A DNA stretch of 44,409 nt from Escherichia phage MirsaeidiM_Esher4. Under the pieces are notes generated by a model, which did not search any database, was not told the origin of the DNA, and worked only from the letters and a program-made list of their open reading frames with translations. Every line of letters begins with the position of its first letter. Position 1 is the stretch's first letter. The stretch lies in sequence record PQ579973.1, one strand, 5' to 3'. Of the stretch, positions 34,316 to 37,056 are shown one piece after another. Position numbers and translations under genes: made by a program.

Positions 34316-34596
34316 CTAAAGAGGGCCGCGTACAGAAATACGCAAAAGACCGATTCGAGGCCCTTGGCGGCCTCGTTCGCAAACTCTCCTACGAGGGGCG
34401 TTCCGGCGCCCCAGACCTGCTGGTAATTCTCCCCGGCGGCATAGTCTGGTTCGTCGAGGTTAAGAAAGACGAGAACACGAAGCCAGACCCGCACCAGCTA
34501 CGGGAACATGAGCGGATGCGTAAACGTGGTGCGAATGTTTTTGTCGTTGGTTCGTTTAAACAGGTTGACGACCTAATAGCTAGCTATTATAGTTAG
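34312..34596 (+). CDS. VRR-NUC domain nuclease
   Basis: Segment GAPDLLVILPGGIVWFVEVKK matches the D...E.K core of VRR-NUC; start moved to ATG 34312. Confidence 0.55.
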   Translation: MTKEGRVQKYAKDRFEALGGLVRKLSYEGRSGAPDLLVILPGGIVWFVEVKKDENTKPDPHQLREHERMRKRGANVFVVGSFKQVDDLIASYYS

Positions 34597-34626
34597 TCCT
34601 ACACCAACAATATAAGGAATTGAGAA

Positions 34627-34818
34627 ATGAAACACGAATATGACCGCAAACCAGCACGTGACATCGTACCGGGTGACATGATTTTCAACGTTAAGACACG
34701 TCAACCTGTTGCCGTTGATACGGTGTACGTCGAGTCAAACGGTAAACTGGTTATCGAAGATGTAACCGGTAACGTTACGGCGTTCGGGCGTAAAGAGTTA
34801 GTTCTGGTGGCGAAATGA
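34627..34818 (+). CDS. Hypothetical protein
   Basis: Track ORF; ATGA-coupled to methyltransferase gene. Confidence 0.35.
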   Translation: MKHEYDRKPARDIVPGDMIFNVKTRQPVAVDTVYVESNGKLVIEDVTGNVTAFGRKELVLVAK

Positions 34819-35639
34819 ACTATTACAATGAATGGGATAAAGGCGCAGCCGCGTGGCTGCGTGAGTTGATAAAACAGGGTAACATACCTTTTGGAGTTGT
34901 AGATGAAAGAAGCATTACCGAAGTTAAGCCAGAAGACCTTGACGGGTTCACCCAGTGTCATTTTTTCGCGGGTATCGGCGGCTGGCCTCTCGCGCTCAGA
35001 CTTGCGGGAGTTCCGGAAGATGCGCCTCTCTGGACGGGAAGCCCGCCTTGCCAACCGTTTAGCGCGGCGGGAAAGCAACTCGGACAGTTCGACCCGAGAC
35101 ACCTCGCGCCGGTCTTCCTCGACATCATCAGCGAGTGCCGCCCTCCAGTCATCTTTGGGGAGCAGGTTGCGCCAGCAATTGCAAAATCGTGGATGTGCGA
35201 TTTACAAGCTCACCTGGAAGGAGAAGACTACGCCGTCGGGTTTGCTGTACTCCCAGCTTGTAGCGTCGGCGCACCGCACAAAAGAGAACGACTCTTCTTT
35301 GGCGCGCACGAACTGGCCTACACCGACAGCGAACGACTTCAGAGGGAGCGGAGAGACAGTGATTCGCACGGACGGGAGGGACAGAACATTCGACAGGCTG
35401 GACTACTCAACAGAGCAGGGATTGAAAGCGAGTCAACCAACCCGCACCACGGCTTCTGGTCAGATGCTGACTGGCTCGGATGCCGTGATGGAAAGTTCCG
35501 GCCGGTTGAACCCGGCGCATTCCCGCTGGCTAATGGGGTACCCGCAAGAGTGGGACGATTGCGCGGTTACGGCAATGCCATCGTCCCGCAAGTAGCCGCC
35601 GAATTTATAAAGGCGTTTATGGGGGCGGTAAATGAGTAA
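34815..35639 (+). CDS. DNA cytosine-5 methyltransferase (frame may be disrupted; see findings)
   Basis: Motif I FAGIGG, motif IV PPCQPFS, ENV-like GEQV, motif [14 protein letters not shown], motif [15 protein letters not shown]; motif IX-like [10 protein letters not shown] lies in overlapping +1 frame. Confidence 0.65.
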
Positions 35640-37056
35640 GTTTCAAAGGCGCGAATACCAGAAGCTCATGACTTCGTTCATGCTGCGGCACCATCGCTGC
35701 AATATCTGGGCGAGCATGGGCAGCGGTAAGTCGGGGTCAACGTTGTGGGTTCTCAATCGACTGTTCCGTAATGGGCAACTTAATGACGACGACCGAGTGT
35801 TAATTCTGGCTCCTTTACGTGTTGCGTCAGGTACGTGGCCCGCGGAACAGGCACGTTGGAGCTTCCCCTGTCTGAGTGTCGTAGACGCAACCGGTTCAGA
35901 GAAGCGCCGTATCGCGGCGCTGGAGTCAGATGCTAACGTGGTGTGCACAAACTACGAAGTTATCGAGTGGCTGATTGACTACTACGGCAAAGACGACTGG
36001 CCTTTTACGGTTATCGTTGCTGATGAGAGCACGAAGCTGAAATCTTTCCGTAGCCGTTCTGGAGGAAGCAAACGGGCTAAGGCGCTAAGCAAAGTGGCGT
36101 TCGGAAAGGTTAAGCGTTTCATTAACCTGACAGGCACACCGTCGCCGAACGGCCTCAAGGACTTGTGGGGGCAGAACTGGTTTATCGACGCTGGCGAGCG
36201 CCTTGGTTCTTCGTACACGGCATTCACAGACCGCTGGTTTAACTCGGTACAGAAAGGGAAATCCGCGATGGCGCGGGAGTATCACGCACGACCGGGTGCG
36301 GATAATGAGATTCATCAGAAGATGAAAGACATTAGTCTCACTATTGACGCCGCTGAGTGGTTCGGGTGTGAAGCGCCGATTATTGTTACGGTTGAAATCG
36401 ACCTGCCGAAGAAAGCACGTCAGGCGTACATCGATATGGAGGAGAAGTTATTCGCGGAACTTGAGAGCGGGGAAGTGGAAGCTGCTAACGCTGCGGCGAA
36501 GACGTCGAAGTGCTTGCAAATTGCGTCCGGTGCCGTATATGTATCTGGGCCAGACGGCGAAGCAACCAAAGACTGGGAGAAAGTACACGACACGAAACTG
36601 GATGCGCTGGAGTCCATTGCCGAGGAGTTGCAGGGTGCGCCGTTACTAGTCGCCTATCAGTTCAAGCACGAACTGGAGCGCATCCTCAAGCGCTTCCCGC
36701 AGGCGCAGGCTTTTGCAAAAGGCGCGAAGGGCAATAAGCAGATGGAAGCGTGGAACCGTGGCGAAATCGAAATCCTATGCGTGCACCCCGCGTCAGCCGG
36801 CCATGGCTTGAATTTACAGGACGGCGGACATCATCTGGCGTTTATTTCGCAAGGCTGGAACCTTGAGCACTATTTGCAGGTTGTCGAGCGTATAGGCCCG
36901 GTGCGCCAGAAGCAGGCGGGCCACGAGCGACCAGTGTTCATCTATCACATCGTTGCTAAAGACACGCTGGACGAGGTTGTTGCCTCGCGTACTGACGAGA
37001 AGAAATCGGTCCAGGAAGAGTTGCTTAATTACATGAAGAGACGAGGTAAGAAATGA
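35632..37056 (+). CDS. SNF2/DEAD-like superfamily 2 helicase
   Basis: Walker A SMGSGKSGST, DExx-like VIVADESTKL, NLTGTPSPN motif. Confidence 0.75.
   Translation: MSKFQRREYQKLMTSFMLRHHRCNIWASMGSGKSGSTLWVLNRLFRNGQLNDDDRVLILAPLRVASGTWPAEQARWSFPCLSVVDATGSEKRRIAALESDANVVCTNYEVIEWLIDYYGKDDWPFTVIVADESTKLKSFRSRSGGSKRAKALSKVAFGKVKRFINLTGTPSPNGLKDLWGQNWFIDAGERLGSSYTAFTDRWFNSVQKGKSAMAREYHARPGADNEIHQKMKDISLTIDAAEWFGCEAPIIVTVEIDLPKKARQAYIDMEEKLFAELESGEVEAANAAAKTSKCLQIASGAVYVSGPDGEATKDWEKVHDTKLDALESIAEELQGAPLLVAYQFKHELERILKRFPQAQAFAKGAKGNKQMEAWNRGEIEILCVHPASAGHGLNLQDGGHHLAFISQGWNLEHYLQVVERIGPVRQKQAGHERPVFIYHIVAKDTLDEVVASRTDEKKSVQEELLNYMKRRGKK

Follow-up and report, generated by a model that had tools for sequence, protein, structure and literature searches.

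The window analysed here, that is, the whole 44,409-nucleotide stretch of Escherichia phage MirsaeidiM_Esher4 (PQ579973.1), contains on its plus strand a predicted C5-cytosine methyltransferase gene, alpha (34815..35639, frame 0, 274 amino acids), and, lying wholly within it in the +1 frame, a second open reading frame (ORF), beta (34903..35595, 693 nucleotides including the stop codon, 230 amino acids). The two ORFs probably encode the catalytic large subunit and the small subunit, respectively, of a heterodimeric C5-methyltransferase resembling M.EcoHK31I, whose beta gene likewise lies inside the alpha gene in another frame. The nested layout recurs in every locus sampled, both frames are under purifying selection, and a composite assembled from segments of the two proteins is collinear with monomeric C5-methyltransferases. 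Nucleotides 34500-36000 of the window are 99.4% identical to Escherichia phage K1H, and on sequence grounds the window is a K1H-like coliphage (Kagunavirus, Guernseyvirinae).

The initial annotation of this region had reported the 274-residue frame and the nested 693-nucleotide ORF, both of which are in the ORF list at the coordinates given above, together with a series of peptide motifs, every one of which was located where it had been described. Its overall reading can be followed only in part: the methyltransferase motifs are indeed split across two frames, but the three causes suggested for the split, namely sequencing indels, recent inactivation, and programmed recoding, are all disfavoured, as discussed in detail below.

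Conservation of the layout was evaluated in two samples, comprising 80 diverse loci from IMG/VR with alpha identities of 45-81% and 80 loci, mostly from Proteobacteria, obtained from a genome scan seeded with the beta pattern. A beta profile match was found in the +1 frame of alpha in all 80 viral loci, and alpha overlaps beta in the same relative frame in all 80 bacterial loci. Both frames are intact in 158 of the 160, with the other 2, both bacterial, being decayed. Furthermore, tblastn searches with beta showed 35-50% identity in distant phages whose hosts include Klebsiella, Edwardsiella, Rhodobacter, Erwinia, Salmonella, and Burkholderia, and the same architecture is found in the independently sequenced phages K1H, K1G, and K1ind1-3 and in hundreds of Kagunavirus and Jerseyvirus records. 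When seven phage records were inspected by hand, beta was in the +1 frame relative to alpha in all seven; the annotated methyltransferase was alpha in six of them and the beta frame, with alpha overlapping it, in Burkholderia phage phiBtTUL1a. The two decayed copies, from Erwinia tracheiphila (L113) and Photorhabdus kayaii (L165), have additional breaks in frame and show the true pseudogene form of alpha/beta.

Selection on the two frames was assessed from per-gene statistics (stops, entropy, starts, and slippery sites) for 81 homologous genes. Stop codons in the +1 frame numbered 169 over alpha codons 1-30, 15 over codons 31-45, and 4 over codons 46-75, with none over codons 76-248 and a return of stops after codon 249; the +2 frame contains stops throughout. 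With synonymous-codon reshuffling of alpha as the expectation, 1.46, 0.99, and 0.50 +1 stops per gene were expected in codons 103-164, 165-212, and 213-248, respectively, and 0 were observed in each: the +1 frame is open far beyond chance. The entropy of four-fold sites in alpha was 1.72-1.84 bits at residues 3-102, 0.91-0.97 bits at residues 103-164, 0.66 bits at residues 213-240, and 1.97 bits at residues 263-270—that is, these sites are constrained exactly where the beta protein is conserved, indicating that those stretches code in both frames. Between them, alpha residues 165-212 form a linker that varies in length from 30 to 129 codons across the genes; it is free of stops in 81 of 81 genes, compared with 6.7 of 81 expected from synonymous reshuffling of beta, and the third frame across it contains 3.7 stops per gene. 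Thus, the alpha and beta frames are both under purifying selection.

The motifs that the initial annotation had assigned to the 274-residue frame (I, IV, an ENV-like element, VIII, and X) are all present there, X as a candidate. Motif I, the S-adenosylmethionine (AdoMet)-binding loop FFAGIGG (residues 50-56; 34962..34982), was placed by hhalign on residues 87-107 of Escherichia coli Dcm (E 0.0018), with the motif I region giving only a weak alignment to M.HhaI residues 2-33. Motif IV, PPCQPFS, with the catalytic cysteine (residues 77-83; 35043..35063), pairs with M.HhaI GFPCQAFS and also aligns with Dcm; motif VI, the ENV variant FGEQV (residues 114-118; 35154..35168), pairs with M.HhaI FMENV; and motif VIII (residues 155-164; 35277..35306) pairs with M.HhaI QKRERIYM. 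Over this whole stretch, M.HhaI residues 74-168 (motifs IV-VIII) align to alpha with an E value of 1e-10, with PCQ, EQV for ENV, and RER pairing up, and the hhalign probability of alpha against Dcm and phage C5-methyltransferases is 98-99%. Toward the C-terminus, the linker (35307..35450) is rich in R, E, and S, has a mean residue conservation of 0.22, and is always open; it is followed by a conserved segment overprinted on the beta C-terminus (35451..35537), delimited by alpha conservation, and by the motif X segment (spanning residues 248-264; 35556..35606), where alpha 250-266 aligns weakly by hhalign to Dcm 432-448 (motif X; E 0.39) and collinearly within the composite alignment described below. 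A relative of alpha with 479 residues (P0195) has an insertion of ~130 residues in the conserved C-terminal segment after ...FRPVE, in the region overlapping the beta C-terminus.

The Pfam family DNA_methylase (PF00145) matches alpha at residues 71-168 only, corresponding to profile positions 63-164 of 324 (E 2.9e-17), so that the C-terminal half of the model, containing the target recognition domain (TRD) and motifs IX-X, has no counterpart in frame 0. Since the PF00145 and M.HhaI coverage is limited to motifs IV-VIII, alpha is without a recognisable TRD or motif IX. The absence of motif IX from this frame had been pointed out before, and it is borne out by the end of the Pfam match at position 164 and by the lack of conservation over residues 165-212; by profile alignment, the 274-residue frame on its own does not hold an intact TRD plus motif IX.

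The N-terminal part of alpha departs from the canonical order. A motif II-like element (YYNEWD..AA, residues 3-15) and a motif III-like VDERSI (residues 29-34), both within 34821..34916, were recognised by hhalign against Dcm, in which alpha 3-44 aligned to Dcm 112-151 and alpha 45-65 aligned separately to Dcm 87-107; TIGR00675 places alpha residues 3-166 on profile positions 25-161. With motifs II-III lying upstream of motif I, the motif order is permuted (II-III-I-IV), and the Rossmann fold of alpha may be permuted as well. In the AlphaFold2 model of alpha, the N-terminal part shows an alternating strand-helix pattern with a predicted local distance difference test score (pLDDT) of about 75, corresponding to moderate confidence; a search of the alpha N-terminus against the PDB was uninformative.

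Beta contains two dual-coding stretches separated by a variable region. The first (residues 73-137; 35119..35313), delimited by beta conservation together with four-fold entropy, overprints alpha motifs VI-VIII and has the consensus LQ.SL.SRL...L...GSTLY.LTWK...TPSGR....LRAS..RTS, continuing ...GWPTP.A.D. The variable region (35314..35445) consists of one WPTP module (35314-35346, residues 138-148) and variable sequence. The second dual-coding stretch is the conserved C-terminus (35446..35592), over which the alpha four-fold entropy has the low value of 0.66 bits given above, and it contains a motif IX-like element, LNPxHSRWLMGxPxEW (residues 201-221; 35503..35565), placed by the composite alignment. 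The W-P-T-P module occurs once in the window and up to about five times in relatives (Burkholderia phage phiBtTUL1a). Indels between close relatives are multiples of three, adding WPTP modules in beta and junk in the alpha linker, with alpha being 274, 309, 314, or up to 359 residues and beta 230, 265, 270, or up to 342 residues long in relatives. To judge from these sequences, the variation looks like gain and loss of a cassette type. Even among Kagunavirus relatives, the number of modules differs, and the alpha linker changes in length to match.

Because beta alone gives no significant match to motif IX, the assignment of that motif was made from the composite alignment, pattern resemblance, and the M.EcoHK31I precedent. 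A composite profile consisting of alpha 1-166, beta 136-224, and alpha 248-274 was aligned by hhalign with a template made from E. coli Dcm and eight monomeric phage C5-methyltransferases. The composite aligns end to end (query 1-276 on template 24-359; score 137.8, E 2.6e-19), and its score compares with 124.5 for alpha alone and 127.0 ± 1.5 (maximum 130.3 in 30 trials) for composites with permuted beta columns. Here, WPTP comes to lie on the "fP" element found after motif VIII in canonical enzymes, the beta LNP..WLMG.P falls on motif IX (RrlTPrEC.RLQGFP), and the alpha GNAIVP element falls on motif X (YKQaGNSV). A shorter composite of the beta and alpha tails matched motifs IX-X with a P value of 0.004, a score that 1 of 60 permuted controls reaches; the tail constructs gave no match to Pfam DNA_methylase. 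As an evolutionary statement, the composite is real: to go by these alignments, the +1 frame holds what alpha is without. The earlier proposal of a TRD-like segment and a motif IX in the +1 frame is thus upheld as to placement and collinearity, but not by beta alone, which is not significant against canonical profiles.

Beta-like proteins are numerous. When 1.84 billion representative proteins were scanned in full with HMMER, the beta-like clusters (50% identity) numbered 13,430 at E<=1e-3; 9,642 of these pass E<=1e-10 and 4,061 pass E<=1e-30. One of 75 diverse betas (an A3 member) has an Endonuclease_7 (Endonuclease VII) domain downstream of the beta part, and other homologues continue in frame into a Dam N6-adenine methyltransferase (P0253) or DUF2800 plus a PD-(D/E)XK nuclease (P0252), the long open frames being L013:1268-2614 and L049:1250-2686. 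Such extensions may be genuine fusions, or translation may simply run on into the following gene. Natural in-frame fusions of alpha and beta into a monomer were sought among long relatives, and none was found, the long forms being variants with extra modules or fusions of beta with other domains, and the two bacterial loci of mixed frame being the decayed copies.

The likely start of beta (34893..34905, plus strand) comprises GGAG at 34893-34896, a 6-nucleotide spacer containing a +1-frame TAG at 34900-34902, and the ATG at 34903-34905, which is made by the GAT-GAA codons of the conserved alpha VDERSI. An alternative internal start (35007..35022, plus strand), with GGAG at 35007-35010 and ATG at 35020-35022 (Met40), would yield a product of 191 residues. 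Among homologues, 76 of 81 have a +1-frame ATG within alpha codons 25-45, usually supplied by the codon pair of a conserved Asp-Glu or Asp-Val in VDERSI.DV. At alpha position 36, Asp is written as GAT in 84% of genes, compared with 42% at other Asp sites, and an ATG is present at this position in 43 of 81 genes, 36 of these with a Shine-Dalgarno (SD)-like element. Residue-level selection is absent from beta residues 1-72, which leaves these starts as candidates.

Taken together, these features suggest a mechanism in which alpha would act as the catalytic large subunit, providing the AdoMet loop, the PCQ cysteine, the variants of ENV and QxRxR, and motif X, and in which the segment between motifs VIII and X, where monomers have the TRD and motif IX, would be an unconserved spacer. 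Beta would have its own translation start within alpha, with a separate GGAG and ATG, giving a protein of 230 residues or of 191 residues from Met40, and would supply the missing parts of the small domain: the WPTP modules, which probably act as the TRD, and the motif IX-like element. The conserved N-terminal segment of beta, which lies over alpha motifs VI-VIII, plausibly docks beta to alpha, and the assembled subunits would methylate phage DNA as one enzyme, presumably for evasion of host restriction; for M.EcoHK31I, such a solution has been demonstrated by experiment. The arrangement probably arose from a monomeric ancestor in which the segment with the TRD and motif IX came to lie in a different frame from motifs I-VIII and X. 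A more far-reaching and tentative proposal is that these proteins form a very large and mostly unrecognised class of heterodimeric phage enzymes, with the present pair as its type example, split by frame from a monomer, with a permuted alpha and with beta as a swappable WPTP specificity cassette. If so, the alpha spacer would exist only for overprinting, and specificity would evolve by in-frame gain and loss of modules while catalysis is left untouched.

Several observations weigh against the heterodimer. The evidence for the translation of beta and for its binding to alpha is indirect, consisting of the dual-frame selection and an ATG with an SD-like element, and the first 72 residues of beta are, as noted, without residue-level selection. 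None of the 75 diverse betas (0/75) matched PF00145 in Pfam, nor did they share any Pfam family; two beta profiles and a chimera of the beta and alpha tails found no matches in the PDB; and beta alone, compared by hhalign with nine canonical C5-methyltransferases, gave no significant motif IX and a spurious match near motif IV. The AlphaFold2 models of beta and alpha are poor (pLDDT 48.7 and 43.5, respectively) and provide no structural test, the probable cause being input alignments that held close relatives only. In addition, the loci were picked by similarity to alpha or beta, which possibly favoured intact copies. Moreover, the TRD of M.EcoHK31I has been assigned to alpha in the literature, whereas the putative TRD here, namely the variable modules, is located in beta. 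That beta alone is without significant similarity to Pfam, the PDB, or canonical methyltransferase profiles would also fit an overlapping gene that is real and yet not a methyltransferase subunit; beta would then take part in DNA binding, regulation, or anti-defence, and alpha alone would be a complete minimal methyltransferase in which the C-terminal GFW.DADWL.CRDGKWRPVEPGTFPLA serves as a reduced TRD and motif IX. The strong conservation of the alpha C-terminus and its weak alignment (E 0.17) over the canonical motif IX-X region agree with this reading, as do the apparent fusions of some beta homologues to Endonuclease VII, Dam, and DUF2800 with PD-(D/E)XK. However, the native-order beta segment lifts the composite score well above that of the permuted controls, beta is strictly linked to alpha (160/160 loci), both chains are needed in the M.EcoHK31I precedent, and the alpha spacer is too unconserved for the role of a TRD. 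A beta that is not a subunit is accordingly considered unlikely, and the heterodimer is retained as the preferred explanation.

The remaining explanations do without a separate, translated beta gene. Were the +1 ORF untranslated and open owing to a nucleotide-level constraint inside alpha, such as RNA structure or codon bias, hitch-hiking on alpha would explain the apparent conservation of the first 72 beta codons; however, the beta protein (WPTP and the C-terminus) is conserved in places where alpha is not and where the nucleotides themselves show little identity, the amino-acid identity in tblastn of 35-50% extends across distant phage groups, stops are missing from the +1 but not from the +2 frame, and the pattern of constraint tracks the beta codon phase, all of which make this explanation very improbable. 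Programmed recoding, with a +1 shift after motif VIII and a -1 shift before motif X yielding one contiguous enzyme, is in line with the collinearity of the three-segment composite with monomers and with its canonical GYP-GNA spacing. Nevertheless, conservation and dual coding of the beta frame begin at about nucleotide 35119, ~190 nucleotides upstream of the proposed +1 shift, and the +1 frame is already open from about alpha codon 46 and has its own ATG and GGAG, while the alpha frame stays open through the linker that would be bypassed. Furthermore, 0 of 81 loci have a -1 slippery heptamer (X XXY YYZ) where the frame would return (beta 212-230), and neither a zero-frame stop in alpha nor another known +1 signal was found at the first junction. 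To our knowledge, no double-shift gene has been described so far, and recoding, as raised in the initial annotation, is regarded as highly doubtful. Sequencing indels or a recently inactivated monomeric methyltransferase are scarcely credible. Decayed copies do exist in Erwinia tracheiphila and Photorhabdus kayaii, and the Prokaryotic Genome Annotation Pipeline (PGAP) calls an intact E. coli prophage copy two pseudogene fragments. On the other hand, the architecture is identical in independently sequenced relatives, including K1H, and in the 158 intact loci among 160 diverse ones, purifying selection acts on both frames, and no homopolymer is found at the junctions, runs of at least 5 nucleotides occurring in the gene only at 34961 and 35621, far from them. 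The comparative data thus effectively refute both of these earlier suggestions.

In the window, alpha is flanked by overlapping ORFs. The stop codon of an upstream 63-residue ORF overlaps the alpha ATG as ATGA (34815-34818), and a downstream SNF2-type helicase ORF starts at 35632, overlapping the last 8 nucleotides of alpha (35632-35639); these overlaps on both sides suggest translational coupling along the replication module. A scan for promoters and terminators gave no signal beyond shuffle expectation. The neighbours of alpha/beta are a DNA polymerase, a VRR-NUC or Holliday junction resolvase, a small ORF, and the SNF2-type helicase, with no restriction endonuclease partner among them; the pair is thus an orphan within the replication module of a lytic phage. 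In related loci, a second methyltransferase gene often adjoins alpha/beta: an MT-A70 family gene lies upstream in an E. coli prophage (L177:1710-2366), and a gene labelled "DNA methyltransferase" lies downstream in Edwardsiella phage eiAU (L003:2107-2652).

Both ORFs are annotated in the GenBank record of K1H, alpha as "putative C-specific methylase" and beta as "putative Mte8-like protein", and both are labelled "DNA methyltransferase" in RefSeq. In PHROGs, alpha belongs to phrog_363, with a full-length match (E 5.9e-88), and beta to a separate family, phrog_1008 (E 1.3e-55). A literature search on "Mte8" and nested phage methyltransferases returned annotation-level mentions only; an account of these phage genes as a nested heterodimer was not among them. 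In the prophage of E. coli ECCTRSRTH03 (NZ_CP041110.1), PGAP has rendered an intact alpha ORF of 389 residues (L177:2363-3532) as two "incomplete" pseudogene fragments; this ORF is free of internal stops, and its +1 frame holds beta, which PGAP leaves unannotated. In other E. coli genomes, the annotation covers alpha only.

What had appeared to be a gene defect ranks, on these results, among the longest and best supported cases of same-strand gene nesting in double-stranded DNA phages, with an overlap of about 690 nucleotides, roughly half of it measurably dual-coding, that has been kept across Proteobacterial phages and prophages. The precedent of M.EcoHK31I, which reportedly dates from 1995, and the presence of both ORFs in GenBank were known beforehand; the layout is nonetheless striking, very widespread, and poorly annotated, and the M.EcoHK31I architecture, which the literature consulted here treats as exceptional for a C5-methyltransferase, may be common among phages. 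Gene callers normally retain one ORF, Pfam has no model for beta, and the NCBI pipeline can flag an intact alpha as broken. As a consequence of these gaps, the methylation capacity of phages, and hence restriction evasion in therapeutic K1-type coliphages, is probably under-annotated. If beta does hold the specificity modules, the pair would provide a natural platform for split, retargetable methyltransferases.

Among known systems, the C5-methyltransferases of the Bacillus phages SPbeta, phi3T, and rho11s are multispecific, monomeric orphans in which several variable modules follow one another in tandem from motif VIII to motif IX. The differing count of WPTP modules, the putative TRDs of beta, resembles this arrangement in layout. 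The canonical monomers (M.HhaI, E. coli Dcm, and PF00145) align with high confidence to alpha over the catalytic motifs IV-VIII; they are, however, single polypeptides, whereas the phage enzyme is split, with a beta segment too divergent for PF00145. M.AquI likewise consists of two polypeptides, is divided within the variable region, and requires both (PMC3404938). Its subunits are consecutive, the larger carrying motifs I-VIII and the smaller motifs IX-X, unlike in the phage pair, where the candidate motif X is on alpha and beta is nested out of frame.

The closest parallel to the proposed heterodimer, compared here by its published description only, is M.EcoHK31I, a two-polypeptide C5-cytosine methyltransferase of E. 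coli HK31 acting on YGGCCR. Its beta is encoded entirely within alpha in another frame, and both chains are required; association depends on the N-terminal part of beta, and translation can also start at internal Met codons (PMC2836561; PMC3404938). The phage pair differs from it in being an orphan, M.EcoHK31I belonging to a restriction-modification pair, and in the position of motifs II-III ahead of motif I in alpha. The sizes are comparable for alpha, with 309 residues in M.EcoHK31I and 274 here (up to about 390 in intact relatives), and differ for beta, with 176 and 230 residues, respectively. Overall, the two systems share a large subunit with motifs I-VIII plus X, the latter a candidate in the phage alpha, but no motif IX, as well as a small-subunit gene placed inside the large-subunit gene in another frame, a layout that is kept in all 160 loci studied here.

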